IMG/VR virus record: IMGVR_UViG_3300042562_001768
Reading direction: 5' to 3' (one strand)
From: a virus
Length of the DNA: 15,563 nucleotides
The position numbers and the translations under genes are program-made. Every line of letters starts with the position of its first letter. Within the stretch, counting starts at the first letter, position 1. The notes beneath the pieces were generated by a model that was not told the DNA's origin, did no database searches, and was given only the letters and a program-made list of their open reading frames with translations. Below are positions 1,823 to 15,563 of this stretch, piece by piece.

Positions 1823-1868
1823 CGAGGGGTTTGAAGTACCTACGAGGTCAACCCACGGATAAACGCCG

Positions 1869-1911
1869 CCAATGCATAAGGAAAACACCCCCAATGCATA
1901 AGAAAACGCCC
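1869..1911. repeat. Tandem imperfect direct repeat (22 + 21 nt) overlapping the terminase ribosome-binding site and start codon
   Basis: ccaatgcataaggaaaacaccc (1869-1890) is followed by ccaatgcataagaaaacgccc (1891-1911). The ATG of the second copy (1894) is the terminase start; AAGGA at 1878-1882 lies 11 nt upstream. Confidence 0.7.
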
Positions 1912-3609
1912 ATCAGACGGTCACGCAAAGCGCCCGCCGGAGCGCTCCAGATTGCGGACGCCTACGCTCACGAAGCGCTGAAGGGCAAGCGCTACAACAC
2001 CCGCATCCGCGCCTTCAGTTCCCAGTGGCTGGCCGCGCGGGCGGCACCAAAGTCGGCTGGTTACGTGTGGGATGAGGAGCGCCTGACCAGCCTGGTGGAG
2101 TACGCGCGGGAGCGGTTCAAGATCACGCTCCTGCCGTGGCAGTACCTGGCCTTCGCCACGCTCGTTTCGTGGCGCGATCAGGCCGACCTTCCGGTGGTTC
2201 GGGTGTTCGCGATACAGGTCGCGCGGGGTGCGGGGAAGACGGAGATGGTGGCGATCCTGGCGTCTTGGCTGGTCGAGTGGACCGCGCGCGCGGGTCGTTC
2301 GCCGATCGAGATCGTGGTGCTCGCGACGCAGATGGAGCGCGCCAAAGACGTGTGGCTTCGGCAGAAGGTCAGCCTCGCGGACGACCCGTCCTGGCGCCTG
2401 GTCGGTGGTCTGTCGTCGCTCGTCATTGCCGCGGCCCACCACGCTGGCGGGGTGGTCAAGTGCAAGCCATCGACCCCTAAGAACGCGGACGGAATCCTGC
2501 CCACGCTCGTCGTCTTGGACGAGGCGGCGCGCATCGAAGACGAGACCTACGCGCGCGCGCTCAGTTCGATCAGCAAGGTGCCAGGCTGCCAGGCGCTGAT
2601 CGTTACGACGCCGGACAAGGATCAGCGCCGCCGCGGATACGGCACGACCATCGGACTGCTGGAGCGCGCCTACGACGAGAACACTTCGCCGCCGCCAGGG
2701 ATCGCCGGGATGATCTTCGGCATCGACACCACCGATCGACCGGACGATCCGGAGGCGTGGTACAAGGCGCACCCCAGCCTCGGCATCACGAAGCAGCTCA
2801 GCGACTACACGCTCGGCAAGGCGCTGCTCTTGGATCCCGGCGCACCGAACGATCGCGACGAGTTCTACACCCAGTTCCTCGCGACCTTCACGGATGACCT
2901 GGCCGGTGCCATGCCGCTAAGTCTGTTCGACGCGTGCGTCGAGGACTGGGATCTCTCCGACTTCCGCGGCTTCCCGGCAGTGGTCGGAGTCGACTTCAGC
3001 CAGGGCGGTTGGAGCGGTCAGCAGACGGACCTGACCTCGATCAATGTGTCGGTGTGGGACGGCGTCCGCATCCGCTCCAGGTCGTACCACTACTGGGCCG
3101 GGACCAACATCGAAGCGGACGAAGTCAAGTGCCGACAGCCGCTGCGCGAGTGGCGGGACGCGGGTCTCTTGGAGGTCTGCGGCAACACCATTGACTACTC
3201 GCTACTGGAGGCGCGGACCATCGCCATCGCGTCGATCGTTGACCTGCGGCACTGGGTCGCGGACCCAGCAGGGAAGGCGCCCGCCTGGTGCGAGGCGATG
3301 GAGAAGCGACACGGATGGCGCTGGTCGCGCGCTCCTCAGTCGCACATTTACATGGGCTCGGCGTGGGCAATTTGGAGCGACGCCGTGCGCGGTCGGCGCA
3401 TCCAGTTCGCACCCGATCCGGTGCTCCGCGCGAACCTGTCGCACACGCGCGCGGTGCCAACCGACCGAGGTCTGAGCGTGCCAAGCAAGGGGCGCAGCAC
3501 CAGCAACATCGACGCCGTCACCGCGTGCTGCATGTGCATCAAGGTGCTCAACGATCGCGAGCTCATGACCGAGAGTCTGTACGGCGACCCGGGCAAGATC
3601 TCCTTCTGA
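1894..3609 (+). CDS. terL: Terminase large subunit
   Basis: Long ORF with a P-loop-like segment VFAIQVARGAGKTEMVAILASWLV and a Walker-B-like LVVLDEAARIEDE, followed by a C-terminal nuclease-sized region. ATG at 1894 has an AAGGA Shine-Dalgarno; the ORF-track start at 1831 is a TTG extension. Followed by portal and capsid genes. Confidence 0.9.
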   Translation: MHKKTPIRRSRKAPAGALQIADAYAHEALKGKRYNTRIRAFSSQWLAARAAPKSAGYVWDEERLTSLVEYARERFKITLLPWQYLAFATLVSWRDQADLPVVRVFAIQVARGAGKTEMVAILASWLVEWTARAGRSPIEIVVLATQMERAKDVWLRQKVSLADDPSWRLVGGLSSLVIAAAHHAGGVVKCKPSTPKNADGILPTLVVLDEAARIEDETYARALSSISKVPGCQALIVTTPDKDQRRRGYGTTIGLLERAYDENTSPPPGIAGMIFGIDTTDRPDDPEAWYKAHPSLGITKQLSDYTLGKALLLDPGAPNDRDEFYTQFLATFTDDLAGAMPLSLFDACVEDWDLSDFRGFPAVVGVDFSQGGWSGQQTDLTSINVSVWDGVRIRSRSYHYWAGTNIEADEVKCRQPLREWRDAGLLEVCGNTIDYSLLEARTIAIASIVDLRHWVADPAGKAPAWCEAMEKRHGWRWSRAPQSHIYMGSAWAIWSDAVRGRRIQFAPDPVLRANLSHTRAVPTDRGLSVPSKGRSTSNIDAVTACCMCIKVLNDRELMTESLYGDPGKISF

Positions 3610-3674: not shown

Positions 3675-4796
3675 ATGAACCGTCTGTTCAAGCTCTTCGG
3701 CTTCAAGTCTGCACCGATGAATATCGGTTGGGACTCTCCGTCGAACTACGTCCGAGCAGACGTCGCGGCGCTGCCGTCCGTGCAGCGATGCATGAACCTG
3801 ATCGCGAACGATGTCGCGCGCTGCCCACTGGTGGTGCGCGACGCCGAGCAGATGATGGTCGAAGACTCGACGATCACCGCGCTCTTTACGAATGCGGCGC
3901 AGGCCGAGCTAAGCGGAACAGACTTCCGCCGATGGATGGCTTCGGAAGCGCTGCTGTCTGGCAACGCCTTCGCGCAGATCGTGACCGACTCGATGGGCCA
4001 GCCCGTCGCGTTGCGTCCGCTGGCGAGCTCAGCCGTCAGCCTGAACGAAGACAGTAACGGCGTGCTGCATTGGACCTACTCCGGCACCGAGATCGACTAC
4101 GCCTCGATGCTGCACTTCAAGGGTGCGCCGAGTCCAGGGAATCCGTACTGGGGCACAAGTGTCCTGAGCGCTGCGGCGACAAGCCTCGACGCAGTCGCGC
4201 AAACCGAAGCAGCCTGGAACGCATACACCCGGAGCGGCGGATACGGCAAGCTTGTCTTCAGTCATCCCGGCGCTCTCCAGCCTGCGACCCGCGACGCCAT
4301 GCGGACCGCCTTCATGTCGGGACACATGACTGCCGCCGCAGCGGGCACACCGATCTTCGTCGGCGAAGGGATGACCGTGACCGCGCTCTCGCCGTCGTGG
4401 GGCAAGGACATGATCGAGCTCCGCGCCGCGGGCGCGCGCGTGGTCGCGAACATGTTCGGCGTACCAGCCGCGTACCTCGACATGAGCGAGGCGCGCACGC
4501 AACCAGAGATCGCACAGTCGTACGTCTCGTCGTGCTTAGAAATCTGGGCCACGACCTGGGAAGCGGAGATCAGTAACAAGCTCTTGCGACCTGGTCTTCG
4601 TGTTCGTTGGGACTGGTCGCCTGTCTTGGAAGGAGACTTCCGAACCGCTGGCAAGGCGTACGGAAAGTTCGTCGAGGTCGGCGTGCTCAGTCCGAACGAC
4701 GTCCGCGTTCGCCTTGGCTACTCGCCGCTGCCTGGTCTCTGGGATCCGAGGCCAGTGATGAGTGGCATCACCATCGAATCGGACGGTCTGCAATGA
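3675..4796 (+). CDS. Portal protein (HK97-like family)
   Basis: 373-aa ORF directly between terminase and prohead protease; MNRLFKLFGFKSAPMNIGWDSPSNYV... First in-frame ATG after the terminase stop; the ORF-track start at 3288 lies inside terminase. No clear Shine-Dalgarno, so the start is uncertain (alternative ATG at 3717). Confidence 0.8.
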   Translation: MNRLFKLFGFKSAPMNIGWDSPSNYVRADVAALPSVQRCMNLIANDVARCPLVVRDAEQMMVEDSTITALFTNAAQAELSGTDFRRWMASEALLSGNAFAQIVTDSMGQPVALRPLASSAVSLNEDSNGVLHWTYSGTEIDYASMLHFKGAPSPGNPYWGTSVLSAAATSLDAVAQTEAAWNAYTRSGGYGKLVFSHPGALQPATRDAMRTAFMSGHMTAAAAGTPIFVGEGMTVTALSPSWGKDMIELRAAGARVVANMFGVPAAYLDMSEARTQPEIAQSYVSSCLEIWATTWEAEISNKLLRPGLRVRWDWSPVLEGDFRTAGKAYGKFVEVGVLSPNDVRVRLGYSPLPGLWDPRPVMSGITIESDGLQ

Positions 4797-6403
4797 TGCG
4801 AGAACTCCGCGCACAACTGGCACCGACTACCGACGGGACGGTCCGCGGATACGCGGCGCTGTTCGACTCTTGGTCGCTGCCGATCACCGAGCGCGGACGC
4901 ACGTTCCGCGAACGCATCAAGCCGGGCGCACTACAGCCGGACGGGAACGTCTCACTGTGGTGGATGCACGACCACACCGACCCACTCGCGAACACGCGCA
5001 GCGGATCGCTCACGATTACAGAGGACGCGAAGGGGATCGCATTCGTAGCCGACTTGGGTACGAGCGCGCGCGCGGACGAGATCCGCGACCTCATTCGCCG
5101 CGGGGTGGTCGACCAGATGTCGATCGGCTTCGTCGCACTCTCAGATATCTGGGACGGCAATACGTCCCGCACGATCACTAAGGCCACGCTCCATGAGGTG
5201 AGTTTGGTCGAATCGGCTGCGTACCCCGGTACGTCAGCAACCGTCCGCAACCACCAAAGGAAACCCGCTATGTCCGTCAAAGAAGATCGTGCTCGCATCG
5301 CCGAGCTCAACGCTGAATACAACACCGCTACCGATGAGCGTCAGTTCGCCATCATGGACGAAGTCGCAGAGTGTGAGGAGCGCATCGCTGGCGCCCAGGC
5401 TGCATTCACCAACCGCGCCGCCACACCGTTGGCAGTCGCACCGTCGGCACCGCTTGCCGTCGTTCGTCGCATCACGCCTCCAGTCCGTGACGAGCAGCGC
5501 GAGTGGTTCCGCACTGGCTTCAAGCAGAACCGATCCATCGGTCTGAGCGTGACGGGTGGCAACGCTACCGCCGGGCAAACTTTGCCGACCCTGAGCGGTG
5601 AGTTCATCAAGGCGCTCGACCAAGAGTCCGTGATGCGTAGCCTCGCAACCGTCGAGACCCGTGGACTCGATACCGATATCCAAGTGATCGGCACGCGCCA
5701 GACCGCTGTTCTGCTGGCAGAAAAGGCGGCGTACACATCGACCGACTTCACCGCGACCAAGCTCTCTTTCAAGAGCTACAAGTCCGGCGCGCTGACCGAC
5801 GTCACGGAAGAGGCCTTGCAGGACACCGTGTGGGATGTTGCGAGTCAGGTAGTCAGTGAACACGGTCGCGCTCACTCGCGACTCTGGGAGAACTACTACG
5901 TAAACGGTACCGGCACTTCCCAGCCGCAAGGCGCGTTTGCTGCGACCTGGACAACGACGTACACCACGGCGGCTGTTGGCTTGCCAACGGTGGCGGACTT
6001 GGTCACGGCTGCGTACAAGTTGCCAACCCCGTACCAGGCGAACGCGTCCTGGCTCATGCACTCAACTGTTTGGGCTGCGGTCGTCGGCAGTGCGGCCAGC
6101 GGCAAGTACCTCCTGAACGGTGAGAACGGGAACATCCTCAAGGACGGGGCCGTCGCTCTGTTCCTCGGCAAGCCTGTCTACCTCAGCGAGTGGGCACCAT
6201 CGGCAGCAACCGCTGCTACGGTGTCGTGCCTGTACGGTGACTTCAAGGCGGGCTACCGAATCATCGACCGCTCGATGCTGAGCTTCACCGTTGATGATGT
6301 GTCCCAGATGTCTAACGGACTCATCCGCTACACCAGTCGTATGCGCTCCGACGCCAAGGCCGTCGACGCGACCGCGATTGTCCCGGTCGTCATCAAGACC
6401 TGA
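4793..6403 (+). CDS. Prohead (capsid maturation) protease fused in frame to HK97-type major capsid protein; internal ribosome-binding site and ATG at 5270 may also give stand-alone capsid protein
   Basis: ATG at 4793 overlaps the portal stop (ATGA). The N-terminal ~159 aa (VRGYAALFDS...WWMHDHTD...VDQMSIGFVALSD...LHEVSLVESAAYPGT) match the HK97 prohead protease pattern. From MSVKEDRARIAELNAEY onward it is a coiled-coil delta region followed by a capsid-protein-like body ending ...DATAIVPVVIKT. No stop codon separates the two parts. AAGGA at 5257-5261 precedes the in-frame ATG at 5270. Confidence 0.85.
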   Translation: MMRELRAQLAPTTDGTVRGYAALFDSWSLPITERGRTFRERIKPGALQPDGNVSLWWMHDHTDPLANTRSGSLTITEDAKGIAFVADLGTSARADEIRDLIRRGVVDQMSIGFVALSDIWDGNTSRTITKATLHEVSLVESAAYPGTSATVRNHQRKPAMSVKEDRARIAELNAEYNTATDERQFAIMDEVAECEERIAGAQAAFTNRAATPLAVAPSAPLAVVRRITPPVRDEQREWFRTGFKQNRSIGLSVTGGNATAGQTLPTLSGEFIKALDQESVMRSLATVETRGLDTDIQVIGTRQTAVLLAEKAAYTSTDFTATKLSFKSYKSGALTDVTEEALQDTVWDVASQVVSEHGRAHSRLWENYYVNGTGTSQPQGAFAATWTTTYTTAAVGLPTVADLVTAAYKLPTPYQANASWLMHSTVWAAVVGSAASGKYLLNGENGNILKDGAVALFLGKPVYLSEWAPSAATAATVSCLYGDFKAGYRIIDRSMLSFTVDDVSQMSNGLIRYTSRMRSDAKAVDATAIVPVVIKT

Positions 6404-6464: not shown

Positions 6465-6737
6465 ATGCCAGTACCAACCGTAGCAGAGTGCAAGGCCTGG
6501 CTGAACATCGCACACGCGACGGATGACGCTGTGCTACAGGCACAGATTGACGCAGCGATGAGCGAGCACACCGAAGCCACTGGCCGGATCTCGGCAACCA
6601 TCACCCAGGTCGAGAAGATCGCGCTGATGGAGAAGGTCGGCCAGCTCTATGGGTTCCGCGGCGATGACGTTGTCTCGCCGTCCACTTGGTTCACCGACGG
6701 CATCAGACGGATGTTCAACCCCAACAGCATCGGATGA
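6465..6737 (+). CDS. Head-tail connector / adaptor protein (gp6-like)
   Basis: 90 aa, MPVPTVAECKAWLNIAHATDDAVLQAQIDAAMSEH..., resembling gp6-like head-tail connector N-termini. AAGGGG at 6455-6460 sits just upstream of the ATG. Position immediately after the capsid gene. Confidence 0.65.
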   Translation: MPVPTVAECKAWLNIAHATDDAVLQAQIDAAMSEHTEATGRISATITQVEKIALMEKVGQLYGFRGDDVVSPSTWFTDGIRRMFNPNSIG

Positions 6738-6740
6738 ATC

Positions 6741-7070
6741 ATGGCTGGCGCTGGATACCGACGCGAACGCATGATCTACCAGACGCCGAGCCGCAGCACT
6801 GATGTCGCAGGCCAGCAGACGGTAACGTGGTCGGACGTTGTCACTCTGGCTTGCGCCATCACACCGACACAGCGCGAGGTCCTCGACGATCTTGGTGTGT
6901 CCGTGCGGACGGACATCTCGGTCGAGTCTTCGTACCACGCGAGCGTCGTGGCGAAGGGTCGGCTGAAGCACACGGTCAGCCTGTCGATCTACAACATCAT
7001 GAGCGTGACCGATCCGGACGCGGGGCGCAAGCGGCGCCTCCGGATCCTTGCTGCGGAGATCGTCCCATGA
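6741..7070 (+). CDS. Head closure / head-tail joining protein
   Basis: 109 aa, size and position typical of head-tail joining proteins (MAGAGYRRERMIYQTPSRS...RLRILAAEIVP). Call is mainly by synteny. Confidence 0.5.
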   Translation: MAGAGYRRERMIYQTPSRSTDVAGQQTVTWSDVVTLACAITPTQREVLDDLGVSVRTDISVESSYHASVVAKGRLKHTVSLSIYNIMSVTDPDAGRKRRLRILAAEIVP

Positions 7071-7846
7071 TCGCAGCCAAGGTCGACCTGAAGGTGATCA
7101 ACGGATACATCGAACGGCTCACCCTCGCGGGTCGCGCCAAGGTCTACGCACAGGCCGCGCGCGATGCAGCGAACCCAGTACGAAACGAACTGCGCCGCGC
7201 CTGGCGCAAGGCCAAGCGCCGCCGTGGCAAGATCACCAGGAAGATCGCGGCAGCCCAAGAGGTGCGCGTCTTCGTCGGTCAGCGCGGCGGGCGCAAGGGC
7301 GTGGCCACCGTGATGGTGGGAACGAACTACAAGCGCGGCGGCTCGGTCAAGTTGTGGCATCTGCTTGAGCGCGGATATCAGCACTACGGCGGGGGATCGA
7401 ACTCGGTCTACACCCCACGCGACGCGCGCGCGCGCGACACGGAGAAGCGCGAGGACGAGGTAGCCCGCGTGACTGGGGAAGAACAAATCGCGCACGAGGT
7501 GCGGATGGGAACCGATGGAACCAAGTACTCCCGGCAGCGCGTGGCACAGGTGCGCCATCAAGCGCGCGTGTGGTTCCGACAGAACAACCCAGCCGACACG
7601 GCGCACCGCCGCGCAGCCTGGGCAAGCAAGCAGTCAGCGATGAAGTCCGCGCGCGGCGGGGTCATCGCAAACCGGAAGCGCATCCTCGGTCGGCACATCT
7701 CTGAGCCCATCGCGCGGCTCGCGAAGGAACGCCTGCCAGCCATCGCAGCGCAACACGCGCAGCGCCTCGCGTGGTATCAGATCGACGGACGCAAGGCCGG
7801 GGCGGCGAAGCCGAAGTTCTCGAACGCCGACTGGTGGCAGCAATGA
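7067..7846 (+). CDS. Basic structural protein, possible neck / tail-completion protein
   Basis: ATG at 7067 overlaps the upstream stop (ATGA). 259 aa, very Arg/Lys-rich. Function inferred from position only. Confidence 0.4.
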   Translation: MIAAKVDLKVINGYIERLTLAGRAKVYAQAARDAANPVRNELRRAWRKAKRRRGKITRKIAAAQEVRVFVGQRGGRKGVATVMVGTNYKRGGSVKLWHLLERGYQHYGGGSNSVYTPRDARARDTEKREDEVARVTGEEQIAHEVRMGTDGTKYSRQRVAQVRHQARVWFRQNNPADTAHRRAAWASKQSAMKSARGGVIANRKRILGRHISEPIARLAKERLPAIAAQHAQRLAWYQIDGRKAGAAKPKFSNADWWQQ

Positions 7847-8247
7847 GCGTGGCAGGAGCAGAGTTCTATCAAGCGCTCTACACCCGCGCGACCACCGTGG
7901 CGGGTCTCGTCCTGAGTCCCGACCTGCGGCGCGAGGGTGACCCCACGCCAGCGATGTCGTACGAAATCACCAGCGCTTCTTTCAGCGTCGAGACCGACGG
8001 CAGAATCAACGAGGTCACCGCGATCGAGGTCCGCTGGGAAGCGGTCGCCGATTCACTCATCACCGCGTGGGATCTCGCGTGGAGTGTGCGCGGCGCGATC
8101 GACGGCAAGTGGGGGGTCGGCAGTCTCGACTTCGTCCTGACGTCGGCATCGATGTCCTCCGGTATGGCAACGCCCGACGACGGGCAAGGGGACGCCGAGC
8201 GCGTCGTAACTCTCACTACATCTTTCCTCGTCATGGAGACAACCTGA
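7843..8247 (+). CDS. Tail terminator-like protein
   Basis: ATG at 7843 overlaps the upstream stop (ATGA). 134 aa, located directly upstream of the major tail protein candidate. Synteny-based. Confidence 0.4.
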   Translation: MSVAGAEFYQALYTRATTVAGLVLSPDLRREGDPTPAMSYEITSASFSVETDGRINEVTAIEVRWEAVADSLITAWDLAWSVRGAIDGKWGVGSLDFVLTSASMSSGMATPDDGQGDAERVVTLTTSFLVMETT

Positions 8248-8642
8248 TGGCAACTCGCGCAATGGCTGGCTACGGCGGCACACTCACCTTTAAGATCGGG
8301 GCCGGGACCGCCAACGGTATCCCAGTCCGGAACATCACCATGTCGCGCCAGGCGGCAGAGTTCGATATGACGTCGATCTCGGATACCAAGATCTACAGCG
8401 GTCCCGGTCGCGTGAAGCGGAGCGGCTCCTGTGATGCGTACTTCGGAACGCTGTCGGCAAACTTCACGACCTCGATCGAAGCCATCGACCTAGCAGCGCC
8501 AGCCGAACTCGTCATCACGGACGCGGCTGGCGGGTCCACGACCATGAAGGTCATCATCACCGCCGCGGACTTGAAGTACGACGGCAGCGATGCGGTCATC
8601 TACTCCATCAGCTTTTCCGAAACGATCAGCATCACCGTATGA
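8247..8642 (+). CDS. Major tail (tube) protein candidate
   Basis: 131 aa, Gly/Thr/Ser-rich and beta-like: MATRAMAGYGGTLTFKIGAGTANGIPVRNITMSRQAAEFDMTSISDTKIYSGPGRVK... Pattern and position are typical of small siphovirus tail tube proteins. TGATG overlap with the upstream gene. Confidence 0.55.
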   Translation: MATRAMAGYGGTLTFKIGAGTANGIPVRNITMSRQAAEFDMTSISDTKIYSGPGRVKRSGSCDAYFGTLSANFTTSIEAIDLAAPAELVITDAAGGSTTMKVIITAADLKYDGSDAVIYSISFSETISITV

Positions 8643-8890
8643 CCTACCGACCAGTCATCCTCGAATACTCGTCGCTCACCCTTGAGGTCCGGAGACCAAC
8701 CCTCCGCGACACCGTGGAGGCAGACACATCGGACAAGCTTTGGTGGGTTCGCTGCGTGCGCCATGTCGGCGGCGCAGACCTCACCAGGGACGAGGCGCTC
8801 GACCTCGATGCCGCGGACGGTAACACGCTCGCGCAGGAGGTGCTTCGCCCACACCCTACACCGCCGCTGAGAAGCGGCTCTGGAGACTGA
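8639..8890 (+). CDS. Tail assembly chaperone candidate
   Basis: 83-aa ORF between the major tail and tape-measure candidates. ATG overlaps the upstream stop (ATGA). Call by synteny. Confidence 0.4.
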   Translation: MTYRPVILEYSSLTLEVRRPTLRDTVEADTSDKLWWVRCVRHVGGADLTRDEALDLDAADGNTLAQEVLRPHPTPPLRSGSGD

Positions 8891-9063
8891 TGCCACACCT
8901 AGACGCCGACGCCGCACTCGCAAGCGAGCACACCACGCTGGAGCGGATCGAGTACCTACTCGCCACGCTTGCCTGCGCGATGACTGGCCAGGCGCCACAG
9001 CAGTTGCTGCCGTGGCGTCGGCGTGGCATCGAGGACTTCATGGGGCGCATCAATGGCCAATGA
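8890..9063 (+). CDS. Small ORF (57 aa) in the -1 frame relative to the upstream chaperone candidate; possible second chaperone ORF
   Basis: My translation is MPHLDADAALASEHTTLERIEYLLATLACAMTGQAPQQLLPWRRRGIEDFMGRINGQ, with ATG at 8890 (TGATG overlap) and stop TGA at 9061-9063. Not in the ORF track (below length cutoff). No canonical slippery heptamer seen upstream. Confidence 0.3.
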   Translation: MPHLDADAALASEHTTLERIEYLLATLACAMTGQAPQQLLPWRRRGIEDFMGRINGQ

Positions 9064-9661
9064 GTTCAAGTCAGTCCTCACCCTGACCGCGGACAGTTCC
9101 GGCGTCACCGCCGGAGTTAACCAGGCGATGCAGTCCCTCAACAAGTTGCAAGGCGGGATGTCCGCGCTGACATCGCTCGCGGGCGTCGGCTTTGCCATCG
9201 GCATTGGCAAGCAACTCTTCGGCGCAGCCACCGACGAGATGGCACGGATCAAAGACCTCGCGCACTCCTTCAGTCCGGAAGGGATGCGCGGCGCCAACGC
9301 CATGAACATGGCGACCCAGCAGGCGGACATGGCTATCGGCAAGGCGTTCGGTCCGATCGTGGAAGCGATCGACCAGGCATCCGTCGCAGCGATCAAGGAA
9401 CTGACCACGTTCATCATCGAGCACAAGGACGAGATCGGGATGGCGATGATCTATCTGACCGAGGTCACGCACGTGGCAGCAATGGCTATGGCAGAGTTCC
9501 TCGTCGGTCTGGGCAAGACCGTCGAGTGGCTGCATAACTTCATGGACAATCCACTACAGGCGACCGCCCAACTCGCTGGCGATGTTGCGATGCAGGCCAG
9601 TGGCGCCAACCTCGTCATCGGTATCTATGACCTCCTCAAACAGAAATTGGGTGGCACATGA
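9053..9661 (+). CDS. Tape measure protein candidate, unusually short (~202 aa)
   Basis: Ala/Gly/Met-rich, apparently helical protein with a hydrophobic segment ALTSLAGVGFAIGIGKQLFGAA, at the tape-measure position after the chaperone-like ORFs. ATG at 9053; an alternative GTG lies at 9023. Confidence 0.45.
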   Translation: MANEFKSVLTLTADSSGVTAGVNQAMQSLNKLQGGMSALTSLAGVGFAIGIGKQLFGAATDEMARIKDLAHSFSPEGMRGANAMNMATQQADMAIGKAFGPIVEAIDQASVAAIKELTTFIIEHKDEIGMAMIYLTEVTHVAAMAMAEFLVGLGKTVEWLHNFMDNPLQATAQLAGDVAMQASGANLVIGIYDLLKQKLGGT

Positions 9662-10611
9662 CCGCGAAGCTCATCGAGATCCCATCAAGCGATACCGTCG
9701 AGATGGCGATGCCTGGCGAGGAGATGAGTTGGACGCAGCACTTCCGCTACGTCTCAAACGCCGCCAAGCTCACCGCGTGGGATGTGCTCGGCGACACCGC
9801 CACTGGCGTACCGCAGCAGGGTTCAAGATACCCAGCCACGCCGTCGACCAACTGGAAGTGCAACTTCGTCGCGCGCAGTGTGACAGCGACACCCGTACCA
9901 CAAGCGGCTGCGGGGTGCGCCTTCGACGTCCGAGTGAAGTGGACCGGGCGCGCGGCGCAGGATCCGACGCGTCCGTACTTCAAGATCACGCGCTCGACCT
10001 CGACGCGCAGTCATGGCTTCTACCGCACAGGCGACATGTTCACGATCACGCAGGCAAACGGCAGCGAGCCCTTCCCGCCAGTCCAGGACATGGGCGGGGT
10101 AAAGAGTGACACCAACGGTCAGCCGATTGTGATGCCGATCTACCAGCAGCAGATCCAGGTCGACATGCTCTGGGACCGAAGCCGGGACAACGCCAGCTCG
10201 CTTGGCTTTACGGCATCGCCTGACCCGCCGATGAACTGGTACGACAACTACTGCCTCACACGGAACTCCGTGCCGTTCCTCGGTTGGCCGATCGGATACG
10301 TCACCTACCTCGGATGGAGTCTGAACCCGTCACCGGACGAGGTGTGCGTTTTATCGCATCGCTTCCTGGCGGACGATTTCCAGTTCTGTGAGCAGCGCCC
10401 GCTACCGAATCAAAGCGGCAAACCGTTCTTAGCGGCGGGTCTGACCTGGGGCGGAACGGCTAGCACACCAGCCGTAACCGTGCAATCCCAGGCGTACGTC
10501 TTCTGGTACCAACCGTTCCAGACTCTTGTCGACTACTCCACGCTCTTCACCATCCGTCCGAATCTGTGGACGGCGATCAACACTCCGAAGCCAGCGTGGC
10601 CGTCGCCATGA
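9658..10611 (+). CDS. Minor tail protein (distal tail / baseplate candidate)
   Basis: 317-aa ORF, ATG overlapping the upstream stop (ATGA). Trp/Tyr/Pro-rich. Position after the tape-measure candidate. No specific motif recognised. Confidence 0.5.
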   Translation: MTAKLIEIPSSDTVEMAMPGEEMSWTQHFRYVSNAAKLTAWDVLGDTATGVPQQGSRYPATPSTNWKCNFVARSVTATPVPQAAAGCAFDVRVKWTGRAAQDPTRPYFKITRSTSTRSHGFYRTGDMFTITQANGSEPFPPVQDMGGVKSDTNGQPIVMPIYQQQIQVDMLWDRSRDNASSLGFTASPDPPMNWYDNYCLTRNSVPFLGWPIGYVTYLGWSLNPSPDEVCVLSHRFLADDFQFCEQRPLPNQSGKPFLAAGLTWGGTASTPAVTVQSQAYVFWYQPFQTLVDYSTLFTIRPNLWTAINTPKPAWPSP

Positions 10612-11111
10612 CGTACGAATGGCCGATCTTTACCGAAGGGCTTTACGGCAAGGCGAACGCCTCGGTGTGCAACGCCTGGACGCAATCGGCGCGCATCGTG
10701 CTATCAAGCGCGGAGGCGCTCGACTGGGCGAACCGAACGAAAGACGGTATGGACCAGCCCGATCGGTGGCTTGCGAAGGTCACGGGCGCAGCAGTCATCA
10801 GCAGTAATCGCTGGTCGTACACCTTTGTGCCTGTCATTATCTCCGGCACGACTACCGCGAACCTATCCGGCACTGGCCAGGCTGGCTCCGGCGCCTTGAA
10901 CTTGCGCGAGATGAACAACACCACAATCCTCGCGGATGGTTCGCCGCTCGCGAGTGGCGTGACCATCGGTCCCGTCGGCTCCACCTGGGGCGGATCGAGT
11001 TGGTCTACGAGTTCGCTGACTGGAATCGTCGAGATGAACGTCGAACATAAAGCCGACGGCAGCGTCGCGTATTGGTTTTCCTCACCGAACCCTGGGAGAT
11101 GTGCAACATGA
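10608..11111 (+). CDS. Minor tail protein, Gly/Ser/Thr-rich
   Basis: 167 aa from ATG 10608 (ATGA overlap); the ORF-track start at 10566 lies inside the previous gene. Low-complexity GTTTANLSGTGQAGSG and SSWSTSS segments are typical of fibre-like proteins. Confidence 0.5.
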   Translation: MTYEWPIFTEGLYGKANASVCNAWTQSARIVLSSAEALDWANRTKDGMDQPDRWLAKVTGAAVISSNRWSYTFVPVIISGTTTANLSGTGQAGSGALNLREMNNTTILADGSPLASGVTIGPVGSTWGGSSWSTSSLTGIVEMNVEHKADGSVAYWFSSPNPGRCAT

Positions 11112-12415
11112 AATACGACGTAATCCGGTCATACTGGCCAGCTCCGATCTACGACACGCCTCTTCCTGCTGGCGTTTATGGCAGTATGCGGGCGTTCAAC
11201 TTCATACGGGAAACCACTACCAAAGGGCTAGACGTAGCAATCGTTGGAGACAGCAACACGGGCTACAACGCTCCGAACGATGGCGGTTACGTTCAAGGCA
11301 TTTCCTATGGTTTGGATGTTGCGTTCCCTTCAAATGCTTACGCCACCGCTACGTTTACGCTGATGAACGAAGGGAACTCTGCTGGCTACAAGTGCTCAAT
11401 GCAAGGCGCATCACTGGCCAGCGCACCGGGTGGCTACGTTTCGGGAAAAGCGAGCGGCGACGCGGGTATTAAAACTTTCTTTGACCGTGGTAGTGGAAGT
11501 TGGAGTGATGCGGGCGGCGCGAACGCAGGGACGTACACGGATTTCCCATGGCTTGAATCGGGAAATCAAACCGAGAACATTAACCGTGGTATGACAATCG
11601 ACTCAGATCACCCCATCGGCGTAAACAACGCGCTCCGATATAGAGTCCTGCGGAGTCAGACCACAACGGGCGGCAGTTTCTATATGCGCGTTCGTCTGAA
11701 TGGTGGCTCATATGCACCGATTGCCACATCGGCTTCGATCCCTTGCAGTGGCGCAACTAATCTAGTTGCATCAGAACTACCGATCACTGTTGGCACTCGC
11801 AATCTGTCCTTGGCTTCATTCTGGAGCATCCAAAACGCAGTTGGTCTTTACACGGTCGGCCCGTGGGGCGGTTTGTTGCAATCGATGTACCGCCCAACAG
11901 TTGGTTGGGCAGTGGATGCGATGTATTTCATGGGTGGTGCAACCATCACCGCCATCGATACAGACTTCGCCGCAGCAAACACCGCTGGGTATCTCACCGC
12001 CACCATGCTTGCCGAGTATTACAACCGACAACTAGCGGCGGGTGGGGATGGTCGCATCGTTGTTTGGATTCAAGGCGGAGCCAACCAAAGCGACTGGACA
12101 TCGAGTCCAAGCACATGGCCAGCAAAGTGGGAATCCATTATGAATTACGTCCGCACAGCAGCCACATACGCCGCCATACCTTCGGAGAAGTTGGCATTCG
12201 TTGCGATGTGTACGCATGACATCACGGGTTATGACTTTGCTTCTAGGCGAGCCGCGCTCATCGCATTGACTACTGCAAACCCTGATCTAACGGTAGTCAA
12301 CATTCCGGAGATTATTCCGTTTGCTTCTTACTCTGCCTATGCAAGCGGAGCGCACTTGTCTAAGACCGGATACCAAACGATTGGCAATGCCATTATTCAA
12401 CGGATGCTTTCTTGA
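11108..12415 (+). CDS. SGNH/GDSL-like hydrolase (esterase/deacetylase-like) protein, tail-associated or lysis enzyme
   Basis: 435 aa from ATG 11108 (ATGA overlap). Block-I-like VAIVGDSNTGYNA near the N-terminus and a block-V-like ASGAHLSKTGYQTIGNAI near the C-terminus, with a long Gly/Ser/Thr-rich insert between. The Asp three residues before the His is not conserved (SGAH), so catalytic integrity is uncertain. G+C visibly lower than the head genes. Confidence 0.45.
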   Translation: MKYDVIRSYWPAPIYDTPLPAGVYGSMRAFNFIRETTTKGLDVAIVGDSNTGYNAPNDGGYVQGISYGLDVAFPSNAYATATFTLMNEGNSAGYKCSMQGASLASAPGGYVSGKASGDAGIKTFFDRGSGSWSDAGGANAGTYTDFPWLESGNQTENINRGMTIDSDHPIGVNNALRYRVLRSQTTTGGSFYMRVRLNGGSYAPIATSASIPCSGATNLVASELPITVGTRNLSLASFWSIQNAVGLYTVGPWGGLLQSMYRPTVGWAVDAMYFMGGATITAIDTDFAAANTAGYLTATMLAEYYNRQLAAGGDGRIVVWIQGGANQSDWTSSPSTWPAKWESIMNYVRTAATYAAIPSEKLAFVAMCTHDITGYDFASRRAALIALTTANPDLTVVNIPEIIPFASYSAYASGAHLSKTGYQTIGNAIIQRMLS

Positions 12416-12714
12416 TCCACCTAGCGGTCGTCATCCTCACGTTCCTCCTGTCAGCCTGTGCATCGAGCACGGCGCAGATCGCGCACGCAGCCAACGCGTC
12501 CCGCGTCTCGGTCGGCGCCGCGCGCGGACACCTGGTCGCCGCCAGCGCGGAGCTCGACCAGATAGAGGCTCAATGCCAGGTGGTGAGCGAGCAGATCCCG
12601 TACGTCTCTGATGATGTGCCGAGCTACATGTCGGTTCTTCAGTACGCCAGTGTTGCCGTCGTCGTCTTCGTCGTTGGCAGTCTCATCTACACCTACATAC
12701 CGCGGAAGAAATGA
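12412..12714 (+). CDS. Membrane protein with N-terminal lipoprotein-type signal (lipobox LSAC) and C-terminal transmembrane helix; lysis-associated candidate
   Basis: TTG start overlapping the upstream stop (TTGA). MIHLAVVILTFLLSAC ASST... has a hydrophobic h-region followed by L-S-A-C. The C-terminus ASVAVVVFVVGSLIYTYI PRKK is a hydrophobic helix with a basic tail. No in-frame ATG near the N-terminus, so the start is uncertain. Confidence 0.4.
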   Translation: MIHLAVVILTFLLSACASSTAQIAHAANASRVSVGAARGHLVAASAELDQIEAQCQVVSEQIPYVSDDVPSYMSVLQYASVAVVVFVVGSLIYTYIPRKK

Positions 12715-12839
12715 TGCTGACCCAAACTCAATATCTGATATGGCTCGTTGCGATTCTCGTCACGACAGCGGCTGCGGGGTGCCGAGTTGGCGCCACTTGG
12801 TCGACCTTCAAACATCAAACAAAAAAGGCTCGCAAATGA
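12711..12839 (+). CDS. Small single-pass membrane protein (42 aa), holin-like candidate
   Basis: My translation is MMLTQTQYLIWLVAILVTTAAAGCRVGATWSTFKHQTKKARK: one hydrophobic helix and a basic C-terminus. ATG overlaps the upstream stop and the next start overlaps its stop. Below the ORF-track length cutoff. Confidence 0.3.
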   Translation: MMLTQTQYLIWLVAILVTTAAAGCRVGATWSTFKHQTKKARK

Positions 12840-12949
12840 TTACGCAAGCAGACCTCTCCAGTACCCTCGGCTCAATTTTCTTCGCGACCAGTCTCGGATT
12901 CGTGGGCTTGATACTTGGTTACATCCTGTGCCGCCGGGCAAGCAAATGA
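12836..12949 (+). CDS. Small single-pass membrane protein (37 aa), holin-like candidate
   Basis: MITQADLSSTLGSIFFATSLGFVGLILGYILCRRASK, the C-terminal part of ORF-track ORF 12611..12949, whose N-terminus overlaps the previous genes. ATGA overlaps at both ends. Confidence 0.3.
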   Translation: MITQADLSSTLGSIFFATSLGFVGLILGYILCRRASK

Positions 12950-13707
12950 GTCTGCTTCGGTGTTGCTGCGGTAGCGCAACCTGTGCATCCTGTCCATCGT
13001 TACCAGGCGACTGGTCGACGCGGGACTATCGTTTGTTCATACCAGCAGTCAAGCCTGTTGGATATGGTCGCGCGAGTTCAGTGCCGAGCGGTCTATACAC
13101 CGGGCCCTGCACGCCAGCGGATCCGTACTGGAACTTGGCAGAGTGTGCATTCGACTTTACCACTGGCTCGCTGTACTACGTCTATTCTCGACTCGCAAAC
13201 TGCGAGCCCTTTCCAGAAGCTTGCGGCGAAGTCTTAAAGTTCCCGCGGGAGATCGGTGGCTTCTATACGGACAACCTTGTCCCGTCGATTACGTTCTCTA
13301 CGCAGATTGCCACGCGCACATACAACCAAACAGGCGACGTTTCATATTTCATCCAGGCGGACGTATCGCGATGCTGGGGCGGATGGGCTGGGTGTGAGAG
13401 TTGCACCAACCGAACCAAGGTCAGCCTCTACTACTTTTTTGGCAACAACTTCACATACAACGACAACTGCACAAACCATCCTGCTGGTGTTACAAAGACT
13501 GTGGAGCTGGAGTATCTCTCGAATCCTTACGCCGCAAGTGAAGGCATCGGAAAAACTTGCTACCTCAGAACCTGGAAAGTGAGCCCTGGGCCGACAGCCT
13601 TCTGCTACCCGGAAACAGGTCAATATGGCTGCGCTGATCCTTGCGTCCTTGGATCGTGTTCGTTCTTTGGATCAAGCAACTTTCCCTCAACGGTAACAAT
13701 CGTATGA
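12946..13707 (+). CDS. Cysteine-rich protein (18 Cys in 253 aa), unknown function
   Basis: ATG at 12946 overlaps the upstream stop (ATGA); the ORF-track start at 12748 is an upstream extension. N-terminal MSLLRCCCGSATCASC cluster and Cys spread through an aromatic/Asn/Thr-rich body. G+C at third codon positions visibly lower than the head genes. Confidence 0.6.
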   Translation: MSLLRCCCGSATCASCPSLPGDWSTRDYRLFIPAVKPVGYGRASSVPSGLYTGPCTPADPYWNLAECAFDFTTGSLYYVYSRLANCEPFPEACGEVLKFPREIGGFYTDNLVPSITFSTQIATRTYNQTGDVSYFIQADVSRCWGGWAGCESCTNRTKVSLYYFFGNNFTYNDNCTNHPAGVTKTVELEYLSNPYAASEGIGKTCYLRTWKVSPGPTAFCYPETGQYGCADPCVLGSCSFFGSSNFPSTVTIV

Positions 13708-14274: not shown

Positions 14275-15027
14275 ATGGATGGCATCACGAAGCTTGCTGC
14301 GGCACTGGTCGCAGCCCAGAAGGATCTGACAAACCCCAAGTTTGATAAGCAGAATCCGCACTATCACAGTAAGTACGCATCACTGGCAGGCATTATCGAC
14401 ACGGTCCGCCCGGCGCTCTTAAAGCACGGACTGGCGGTGGTGCAACCGATCGAAACGGGGACCACATCCGGGACGATTCAGGTCCACACGATCCTGATCC
14501 ACACCTCCGGCGAGTCGATCAAGTCGACCCAGTCGGCACCGGCCCCAGGCGACCCGCAAAAGTTGGGCAGCCTGGTCACGTACTTGCGCCGCTATGGACT
14601 GTCTGCGCTGCTCATGCTGGCAGGGGACGACGACGACGATGCGAACGCCGCCGCGGCACCAACGCAGAAGACCCAGCAAACGCTTGAGCGCCACGTAGAG
14701 GCGTCCGCAGCGCTCTCCGGTGTCGAGAGAGCCATCGCAACCGCAGCCGCTCCTAGGGCATCCAAGGCGCCCGCGCGCGCTGCCGCCGCGAAGGGCATCC
14801 GAGTCGACGCAACGGTGAGCAAGATCGAGGAGCGCACCTCGGCGGCTGGCAAGGAGTACGCATGGATCCACACCGAGGACGCGGGGCGCCTCACATCGTT
14901 TGACAACATCGACGGGATGTCGGTCGGCGCGCGGTACACGTTCCTCCTCCGGAACGACCGCGACGGCAACCCGACGATCGTGGACGACTTCAGCGCTTGC
15001 GTCTCCGACGAGGAGATCCCATTCTGA
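14275..15027 (+). CDS. erf: ERF-family single-strand annealing protein (recombinase)
   Basis: N-terminal NPKFDKQNPHYHSKYASLAGIIDTVRPALLKHGLAVVQ, then DPQKLGSLVTYLRRYGLSALLMLAGDDDDD, which resembles the conserved core of ERF proteins. GGGAG Shine-Dalgarno 8 nt upstream of the ATG. Confidence 0.75.
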   Translation: MDGITKLAAALVAAQKDLTNPKFDKQNPHYHSKYASLAGIIDTVRPALLKHGLAVVQPIETGTTSGTIQVHTILIHTSGESIKSTQSAPAPGDPQKLGSLVTYLRRYGLSALLMLAGDDDDDANAAAAPTQKTQQTLERHVEASAALSGVERAIATAAAPRASKAPARAAAAKGIRVDATVSKIEERTSAAGKEYAWIHTEDAGRLTSFDNIDGMSVGARYTFLLRNDRDGNPTIVDDFSACVSDEEIPF

Positions 15028-15563
15028 TGCGCGTCGCCAAGCAACACATCCACATGGGAGAGATCTTCCGCTGCTCCGGACTTGCTCCGATGCAGCGTTA
15101 CCTACTCATGGCAATAGCCGATTACGGGCTCCCCGCCTGGCCGTCCCAGGCGCGCCTCGCAAACAAAACTGGACTCTCGCGATCCAGCATCAACACGATG
15201 GTGTCAGAGTTACGTCGCCTCGGCGTCCTTACGACGGAAGGTCGGGGCAAGTCTTTGACCTATCGAATTGACCTGTCTGGGAAGGGTGAGGTGTCGTCCG
15301 CAGCGACACCTCACCTGTCGTCCACAGCGACACCACCTGTCGTCCACAGCGACAGCAGGTGTCGCCCACAGCGACAGGGATCAGAACTCTCCAAGGAACT
15401 CTCCAATGAACCCTCCCAGTCCGCGGTGGAAACCGCGGGGGGGTGGGAGGTCTTTGGGGAGGTCATGCAAGCCATCGAACGGCACGATCCGCGAGCCCAG
15501 GGAGACCTGCCCGGACAGCGCCGCGTCGTGCGTCGGCGCCTGGATGAACTCGGCATCAAGGAC
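15027..15563 (+). CDS. Winged-helix DNA-binding protein, putative replication initiator with embedded iterons; truncated by the window edge and completed by 2..280 (229 aa in total)
   Basis: ATG at 15027 (TGATG overlap with erf stop). N-terminus MQRYLLMAIADYGLPAWPSQARLANKTGLSRSSINTMVSELRRLGVLTTEG is HTH-like. The frame is open to the window end and continues through the duplicated 127 nt. The Ser/Thr/Pro-rich linker is encoded by the iteron array. Confidence 0.65.
   Translation, partial: MRVAKQHIHMGEIFRCSGLAPMQRYLLMAIADYGLPAWPSQARLANKTGLSRSSINTMVSELRRLGVLTTEGRGKSLTYRIDLSGKGEVSSAATPHLSSTATPPVVHSDSRCRPQRQGSELSKELSNEPSQSAVETAGGWEVFGEVMQAIERHDPRAQGDLPGQRRVVRRRLDELGIKD
15285..15376. promoter_or_regulatory. 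Array of four 17-bp palindromic iteron-like repeats (tgtcgYccRcagcgaca), candidate origin of replication or operator
   Basis: Units at 15292-15308, 15316-15332, 15338-15354 and 15360-15376, spaced 24/22/22 bp. Each is an inverted repeat tgtcg-N7-cgaca. The first is extended to 12-bp arms (ggtgaggtgtcg / cgacacctcacc, 15285-15315). Followed by an AT-richer 11-bp direct repeat gaactctccaa x2 at 15384-15406. Confidence 0.55.

Follow-up and report, generated by a model that had tools for sequence, protein, structure and literature searches.

The viral record IMGVR_UViG_3300042562_001768 of IMG/VR comprises 15,563 nucleotides of DNA, and this whole stretch is referred to here as the window. Between a pair of small genes resembling tail assembly chaperones and a set of distal tail genes, the window holds an open reading frame (ORF) at 9053–9661 that encodes a protein of 202 amino acids (aa). 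This gene is likely to encode the tail length tape measure protein (TMP) of a complete 15.4-kb phage of the siphovirus type. The first-pass annotation of the window had put forward a tape measure and, alternatively, a protein of some other function; the former is supported by the position of the gene, the predicted helicity of its product, an N-terminal signature and the matches of its relatives to TMP families of the PHROG database. The gene and the features immediately around it are given below.

8247–8642, + strand: probable major tail (tube) protein, 131 aa, lying directly upstream of G and having weak family matches
8639–8890, + strand: tail assembly chaperone "G", 83 aa, assigned from its slot between the tube-like gene and the TMP gene and from a sub-threshold Phage_TAC_7 match
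8854–8878, + strand: candidate -1 frameshift cassette (C_CCU_AC, 5-nt spacer, 6-bp G+C-rich hairpin), proposed from the invariance of CCCTAC and from RNAalifold
8890–9063, + strand: "T" frame, 57 aa from its own ATG, probably made as a G-T fusion, in the -1 frame relative to G
9053–9661, + strand: probable TMP, 202 aa, assigned from position, family, helicity, N-terminal motif and the PHROG matches of relatives
9658–10611, + strand: distal tail protein, 317 aa, with a tail-tube-fold domain predicted from its AlphaFold2 model

The candidate gene and its genome

The ORF runs uninterrupted from an ATG at 9053 to a TGA at 9659–9661 on the + strand and encodes a protein of 202 aa with a mass of 21.1 kDa and a pI of 5.0. 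An alternative GTG start at 9023 would yield 212 aa, but the start is placed at 9053 because all homologues begin at an N-terminus of the MANEFK type. The ATG sits 11 nt within the preceding ORF, and the stop codon shares the sequence ATGA with the ATG of the next gene. The same tight packing extends over a run of eleven tail genes that starts with the one for head completion and ends with the one at 12412, and every junction in it is an overlap of 1, 4 or 11 nt; thus, 9053–9661 belongs to one tightly coupled tail operon. Within this operon, the gene lies downstream of the tube-like gene and the G/GT pair and upstream of the gene for the protein with the predicted tube-fold domain. The earlier description of a helical protein of about 202 aa, the only one between the chaperone-like ORFs (8639–8890 and 8890–9063) and the downstream tail genes, is borne out by the present analysis, and the protein is also the sole TMP candidate of the complete genome. 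Its characterization as a hydrophobic-segment protein was somewhat overstated, as the segments do exist (residues 32–60, 127–160, and 174–195) but are only moderately hydrophobic.

The genome itself is small and closed. Bases 1–127 of the window are identical to bases 15437–15563, forming an exact direct terminal repeat of 127 bp. Such a repeat is the signature of a circular assembly, and the window therefore contains the full genome, with a true size of 15,436 bp. Since the circular genome is complete, no longer tape measure can be hidden elsewhere, which leaves 9053–9661 as the sole candidate genome-wide. Contigs of close relatives, collected from IMG/VR and from the protein collection, peak at 15.4–16 kb and occasionally reach ~19 kb. 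A genome of 15,436 bp is close to the smallest known for phages with a tube-type tail.

A conserved family of short proteins

A word-indexed search recovered six homologues with 41–95% identity, five of them 202–207 aa long and one a fragment of 178 aa. A profile search run exhaustively over 1.84 billion representatives extended the family to 39 clusters at 50% identity and to full-length relatives with identity as low as ~20%. Length is tightly held in the family, with 37 of the 40 aligned sequences measuring 191–236 aa and the remaining three 254, 269, and 416 aa; the region around residues 160–190 differs in length from one relative to another. Three elements are conserved: an N-terminal block (K-A-V-I-x-L-T-A-D-x-S-G-V-x-x-G-V), a central block (FSPE(G/A)M followed by G-x-A-F-G-P), and I-Y-D-L-L-K-x-K-L-G-G at the extreme C-terminus. 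All named database members of the family are labelled "hypothetical protein". Additionally, a scan of the GTDB genomes with the TMP alignment returned no relative, hence no prophage copies were seen.

Sequence links to known tape measures

The links to known tape measures come mainly from the relatives and from the N-terminus. When the 40 family members were compared with PHROG, 36 families were reached at E<=0.1. Among the 25 matches listed of these 36, 11 are annotated as "tail length tape measure protein" and three carry other tail functions. The member P0043 matched phrog_9483 at 1e-13 and four more TMP families of PHROG at 7e-7 to 1e-2, while P0013, a solid member of the family (E 2e-39), matched phrog_4200 at 6e-4; the other matches were weaker, at 1e-2 to 1e-4. 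The first-pass annotation had suggested profile searches against tape-measure families as a check, and it is the relatives (1e-13 and 6e-4), not the window protein, that match them. A match to a non-tail family, named at the same time as evidence that would tell against a tape measure, was found in none of the Pfam, PHROG, and PDB searches. As regards P0043 itself, its gene occupies 951–2201 of contig L019 and precedes that of a 1,217-aa tail protein, and its N-terminal ~130 residues are common to the family. P0043 may be an evolutionary intermediate between the long tape measures and those of ~200 aa.

The N-terminus provides the second link. The 202-aa family carries the motif K-x-V-x-L-T-A-D-S-S-G-V-x-x-G-V-N-x-A, and alignment of the 38-sequence profile with the annotated 553-aa TMP of Rctr41k by hhalign placed columns 11–41 on residues 11–41, in the same register, with 58% identity, an E value of 1.4e-4, and a probability of 52%. 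Furthermore, when the N-terminal consensus of 49 residues was compared by tblastn with 50,697 phage records, 13 weak matches were obtained, 11 of them within annotated TMP genes. These 11 matches span three unrelated groups, namely the Xanthomonas phiL7/CP1-like phages, the Streptococcus Javan phages, and Rctr41k. In both cases that were opened, phiL7 gp16 (973 aa) and the TMP of Javan633, the match begins at residue 1 of the TMP. Such a concentration in TMP genes, at the N-terminus and in one register, is hard to explain unless the segment is an N-terminal signature of tape measures. The whole 202-aa protein, searched against the same records, gave one non-significant match, and profile searches of the PDB with alignments of 7 and 38 sequences returned only coiled-coil or helical-bundle noise.

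Predicted structure and hydropathy

The AlphaFold2 model, built from the 7-sequence alignment, comprises nine helices that cover most of residues 3–198 and are joined by glycine-rich linkers. Its scores are low (predicted local distance difference test (pLDDT) 35, predicted template modelling score (pTM) 0.25), and it has no confident tertiary structure or globular fold; it is unfit for a fold search because its confidence is too low. The secondary structure proposed at first is nevertheless recovered, in that the protein is predicted to be almost wholly alpha-helical and extended, without a compact globular fold. A low-confidence, all-helical model of this kind fits a protein that would become ordered only as an oligomer inside a tube. 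The 19-residue Kyte-Doolittle maximum is 1.38, under the usual transmembrane threshold, and the hydrophobic segments are missing in several distant relatives.

The hydropathy of the protein is periodic. A period of 3.6–3.65 residues, near 11/3, stays in phase across all 202 residues, with a z-score of 5.5 at a fixed period of 3.6 and an empirical p of 0.015 after correction for period scanning. Among the relatives, which are not independent, 17 of 38 reach p<=0.01, mostly at the same period, and no such signal was seen in seven other proteins of the same genome. An in-phase period near 11/3 would be less expected of a compact bundle than of an amphipathic helical rod that is long and almost straight. 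The periodicity is treated as supporting evidence, because the relatives share descent and are not independent.

The chaperone pair and a candidate frameshift

A G/GT frameshift pair is reportedly a hallmark of the genes preceding the tape measure in long-tailed phages, as Xu et al. are said to have described in 2004. In the window, G matches the Pfam family Phage_TAC_7 over nearly the whole profile, with a sub-threshold E of 0.027, and in each of the five diverged lineages studied, T is read in the -1 frame with respect to G. The T frame has a stop at 8821–8823 and thereafter no ATG, GTG, or TTG until 8890. A peptide encoded in the T frame upstream of this ATG, PPY[TS][AS]A.[KR]R[LM][WF]R, is kept in five of five lineages. 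This peptide is better conserved than the overlapping C-terminus of G, and one lineage has an in-frame insertion of 8 codons. Since the peptide is kept where the T frame has no start, translation must proceed upstream of the ATG, and a shift from G is required. The G/T overlap at 8824–8890 is conserved in both reading frames.

The slip site can be narrowed down. CCCUAC is invariant in all lineages (8854–8859 in the window), with the G-frame codon CCU at 8855–8857, and RNAalifold predicts a G+C-rich hairpin of 6 bp whose loops vary and in which one pair shows a compensatory change from C-G to U-A. A canonical slippery heptamer of the form XXXYYYZ was looked for and is not present within the permitted interval of the window. 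The pattern suggests a non-canonical -1 slip of a single tRNA on C_CCU, with re-pairing as CCC; the exact position is a proposal because the classical heptamer is absent.

Neighbouring tail genes

The remaining members of the tail module, beyond those given above, are as follows.

7843–8247, + strand: probable tail terminator or completion protein, 134 aa, assigned from its position between the HK97 gp10-like and tube-like genes
10608–11111, + strand: conserved small tail-tip protein, 167 aa, assigned from gene order
11108–12415, + strand: probable receptor-binding protein or tailspike, 435 aa, with a swapped body and SGNH-hydrolase-like motifs seen by eye

According to tblastn, the relatives hold these genes in a fixed order, consisting of the 134-aa, 131-aa, G, T, 202-aa, 317-aa, and 167-aa genes and then a variable gene. 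The order is maintained in IMG/VR relatives at 42–99% identity. In a relative whose 205-aa protein is 25% identical to the window protein, the series reads 132-126-92-49-205-329-167 aa. The tail-module proteins have no relative among the 50,697 GenBank phage records, and the region 7843–13707 contains no above-threshold match to Pfam or PHROG.

The 134-aa gene overlaps both of its neighbours, in a conserved order, and its product matches no Pfam or PHROG family. The 131-aa family comprises at least 138 clusters; its listed full-length members measure 120–140 aa, and none carries a Pfam domain. The window protein itself has a sub-threshold match to Phage_tube_2 of Pfam (E 0.0094), and individual members of the family have weak matches to T6SS_HCP, to the PHROG major tail protein (9e-4), and to the PHROG tail tube protein, all pointing in one direction. 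Mostly on position, the 131-aa protein is probably the tube protein.

The AlphaFold2 model of the 317-aa protein, built from a 29-sequence alignment, is confident (pLDDT 89.7, pTM 0.82). Foldseek found nothing significant for it in the PDB. Its top-ranked, non-significant match was the tail tip of phage T1, and the high ranks also held the monocin cap and tube and the neck of phage 812, all of them tail-tube-fold proteins. Against BFVD, the model matched only uncharacterised proteins of uncultured phages. The model suggests that the 317-aa protein has a tube-fold domain of the kind present in Dit and hub proteins, and it may be Dit-like or hub-like. Its sole relative in 185,579 GTDB species genomes lies on CAIWAH010000255.1, a contig of 3,057 bp in a metagenome-assembled genome of a freshwater Verrucomicrobia (LaPlata_bin-1618). 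This contig is a weak hint of habitat or host, as the binning of so short a contig is unreliable.

The 167-aa protein is without a match in Pfam, PHROG, and PDB. Profile searches of the PDB were likewise empty for the tube-like, 317-aa, and 167-aa proteins, and hhalign comparisons of the tube-like family with those of the 317-aa and 167-aa proteins showed no relation. The 435-aa protein matches no Pfam or PHROG family. In close relatives, only its first ~29 residues are conserved, the remainder being replaced, as expected for a putative exchangeable receptor-binding or depolymerase module. Its translation shows GDS, GGANQ, and H motifs, noticed by eye, that resemble those of an SGNH hydrolase.

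Head, DNA-metabolism, and possible lysis regions

Outside the tail module, Pfam identifies the following genes.

972–1511, + strand: PDDEXK nuclease (PDDEXK/RusA-like)
1501–1776, + strand: HNH endonuclease
1831–3609, + strand: large terminase
ending at 4796, + strand: portal
4795–6403, + strand: S78 prohead protease (Peptidase_S78) and HK97-type major capsid protein in one fused ORF
6465–6737, + strand: gp6-like adaptor
6741–7070, + strand: head completion protein
7067–7846, + strand: HK97 gp10-like protein, weak match
14275–15027, + strand: ERF recombinase (single-strand annealing protein)

All convincing genes lie on the + strand, setting aside one minus-strand ORF of 82 aa at 15311–15559. 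The recognisable DNA-metabolism genes are limited to the PDDEXK/RusA-like nuclease (972–1511) and the ERF protein (14275–15027). No integrase, repressor, polymerase, primase, or small terminase was recognised in the genome, and the complete 15.4-kb genome holds no sheath-sized or sheath-like gene. A fusion of protease and capsid protein such as that at 4795–6403 is also found in small-genome actinophages (RRH1 and clusters AN and EE), without close sequence relation.

Among the GenBank phages, the best capsid match is LR881103.1 (vB_KppS-Ant, 16.5 kb), an induced element that encodes an integrase, a primase, a capsid protein, a portal, and a terminase. Only one of its genes is annotated with a tail function, as a "tape measure", and the element resembles a capsid-forming satellite more than a phage. 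A satellite of this kind was considered for the window genome and rejected, as the window has a full tail module.

The region downstream of the tail genes offers several candidates for lysis functions. The 100-aa protein encoded at 12412–12714 has, as judged by eye, a lipoprotein-type signal at its N-terminus (lipobox LLSAC) and a hydrophobic helix in its C-terminal part. This layout is that of a putative unimolecular spanin, which would imply a diderm (Gram-negative) host. A possible single-pass membrane protein of 37 aa (MITQADLSS...GLILGYILCRRASK) at 12836–12949 adjoins the spanin-like gene and is a holin-like candidate. A cysteine-rich ORF of up to 319 aa at 12748–13707 is only ~30% conserved in relatives and matches no Pfam or PHROG family. 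No endolysin was recognised in the whole genome; the ORF at 12748–13707 or the SGNH-like 435-aa protein might serve as one.

Proposed mechanism and tail length

Tail assembly in lambda, SPP1, T5, and the Rhodobacter capsulatus gene transfer agent (RcGTA) follows an established model, in which G and G-T bind the tape measure and its C-terminus is anchored at the tip complex. The tube then grows around the tape measure up to the N-terminal end, where the terminator binds. By the same scheme, the G and G-T chaperones of the window would keep the 202-aa protein soluble, and the protein, probably as a trimer, would extend into a rod made up mostly of alpha-helix. The C-terminus of this rod would be anchored in a tail-tip complex formed by the products of 9658–12415. 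The 131-aa tube protein would polymerise around the rod up to its N-terminus, and the terminator would then cap the tube. What the analysis establishes is the gene, its conservation and position, its predicted helicity, and its N-terminal resemblance to known tape measures, whereas the trimer, the role as a ruler, and the length of the tail are inferred. The tight conservation of length (37 of 40 sequences at 191–236 aa) lends indirect support to the role as a ruler.

Tail length in classical phages reportedly scales at ~0.15 nm per residue, a rule attributed to Katsura and Hendrix in 1984. Applied to 202 residues, this rule gives ~30 nm, or 6–8 tube or Dit rings of ~4 nm. The whole tail, neck and tip included, would then measure roughly 30–50 nm and be stubby and non-contractile, similar to that of RcGTA and out of the ordinary for a phage. 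A tube-based, non-contractile tail is suggested by the tube protein, as assigned from sub-threshold matches and position, and by the absence of a sheath gene from the genome. The first-pass prediction of a tail of only a few tens of nanometres is supported, as a length derived from the ruler rule and the RcGTA precedent for an unseen virion. Genomes of this type, 15.4–16 kb in size, are found repeatedly on metagenome contigs and lack a cultured relative. It is possible, although less likely than not, that these are autonomous phages with the shortest tape-measured tails known (~30–50 nm, a length documented to date for a gene transfer agent only) and a three-protein tip, and that they represent a natural intermediate between the siphovirus and podovirus morphologies and a minimal system in which the function of tape measures could be studied. 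The three-protein tail tip, in which no Dit or Tal is recognisable, may be part of the same intermediate condition.

Weighing the assignment against its rivals

Several points weigh against a tape measure at 9053–9661. The 202-aa protein is without a match in Pfam, PHROG, or PDB, and a tblastn search with its C-terminal 37 residues returned nothing. The strongest PHROG link runs via P0043, which at 416 aa is a borderline member of the family (profile E 3.4e-4), and each of the N-terminal tblastn matches is non-significant when taken alone (E 0.7–9). The periodicity statistics are drawn from related sequences, so that the 17 of 38 are not independent observations, and the assignments of the tube protein and the chaperones consist of sub-threshold matches plus position. 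Moreover, no virion has been seen.

Among the rival explanations, the one that survives best is that the protein is a plug of the tail lumen, either needle-like or an ejection protein, seated in a stub of fixed length that it does not set. The tail would then be built from very few rings of the 131-aa protein, perhaps a single one, with a podovirus-like function despite the siphovirus gene order. The very short length of the 202-aa protein would suit such a role, as would the lack of any curated TMP model matching it and of a canonical Dit or Tal recognised downstream of its gene. The authors of the RcGTA study also liken their ~216-aa protein to the P22 tail needle gp26 (PMC7296036). Against this stand the N-terminus in register with the N-termini of long TMPs, the presence of both a tube-like protein and a gene in the terminator position, and the G/GT frameshift pair, which is a hallmark of tails built around a tape measure. 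The 202-aa protein is, furthermore, predicted to be all-helical, without a C-terminal region rich in beta structure such as those of gp26 and RcGTA g11. Altogether, a plug is considered unlikely.

Somewhat more unlikely is that the protein is a true tape measure to which the rule of 0.15 nm per residue does not apply, so that the tail would be shorter, by folding back of the rod, or longer, by growth of the tube past it. The long helix of RcGTA accounts for 113 of ~216 residues, the rest being compact (PMC7296036), and the AlphaFold2 chain of the window protein is broken into nine helices with glycine-rich linkers, with length varying around residues 160–190 among relatives. Set against these observations are the tight conservation of length, with 37 of 40 sequences at 191–236 aa, and the 3.65-residue repeat that stays in phase throughout and argues for a mostly continuous helical rod.

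Finally, a small membrane protein with no part in tail assembly, holin-like or acting in superinfection exclusion and merely housed in the tail operon, would agree with the moderately hydrophobic Gly/Ala-rich stretches at residues 32–60 and 127–160, but is very improbable given the sub-transmembrane hydropathy maximum of 1.38, the absence of these segments from several relatives, the overlap with tail genes on both sides in a slot that is constant in relatives, the TMP-type N-terminus, and the separate membrane proteins encoded downstream at 12412–12949.

Significance

The kind of protein and the mechanism discussed here are already known, and a TMP of such size is documented in a gene transfer agent (GTA). 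The novelty lies in the family, so far unannotated, and in its occurrence in a recurrent lineage of uncultured and apparently autonomous phages of ~15.4 kb with a minimal tail tip. If the assignment of 9053–9661 as a tape measure holds, it adds a previously unannotated tape measure sequence family and indicates that tails of GTA size also occur in seemingly free-living phages near the lower genome-size limit of tailed viruses. The 202-aa tape measure, its chaperones, the tube protein, and the three-protein tip would then make up a small system for structural work, which could reveal how a tape measure is loaded, how growth of the tube is arrested, and how the tape measure exits from the tail. 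Annotation pipelines keyed to the longest gene of the tail module will miss such short tape measures, and the N-terminal motif together with the G/GT context provides a way of finding them.

Comparison with known systems

In size and context, the closest counterpart among the systems compared here is RcGTA g11 (Rcc01694), with ~216 aa versus 202 aa, and it is by size and context only that the two proteins are likened. In both systems, the gene follows that of the tube protein and two chaperone ORFs, and the distal tail genes come next. The RcGTA protein sits in the lumen of a very short non-contractile tail, and its HK97-type head-tail module likewise spans ~15 kb (PMC7296036). The RcGTA tape measure is divided into 113 + 83 + 20 residues and fills five tube discs plus the distal ring of a 49-nm tail; no atomic model of g11 is available in the PDB (PMC7296036). 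The two differ in that g11 has a helix + beta-region + helix architecture with a beta-rich C-terminal part of 83 residues, whereas the 202-aa protein is predicted to be all-helical. Additionally, RcGTA is a domesticated, non-replicating element, whereas the window is a circular genome with its own terminase, HNH endonuclease, ERF recombinase, and lysis-like genes.

The P22 tail needle gp26 is comparable as a short (~230 aa) trimeric helical rod in a tail channel, and the RcGTA authors propose it as a relative of short tape measures (PMC7296036). It differs in being a podovirus protein encoded in a context without a tube protein or G/GT chaperones, and the PDB profile searches showed no similarity between gp26 and the 202-aa protein.

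The long TMPs, of the lambda gpH type and including phiL7 gp16, Javan633, and Rctr41k, resemble the 202-aa protein in gene position, in the N-terminal signature beginning at residue 1, in helical character, and in the preceding chaperone pair with its -1 frame relation. They differ in length (553 to >1000 aa versus 202 aa), and the alignable part is confined to ~30–40 N-terminal residues.

With regard to whole genomes, the window can be compared with Rhodococcus phage RRH1, Arthrobacter cluster AN, and Microbacterium cluster EE, which have genomes of 14–17 kb, a fused protease-capsid gene, and an HNH gene. In RRH1, the smallest cultured siphovirus (14.27 kb), the tape measure gp13 is 532 aa long according to its GenBank annotation, 2.6x longer than the protein described here. 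These small-genome actinophages and the window have in common a compact siphovirus gene order.

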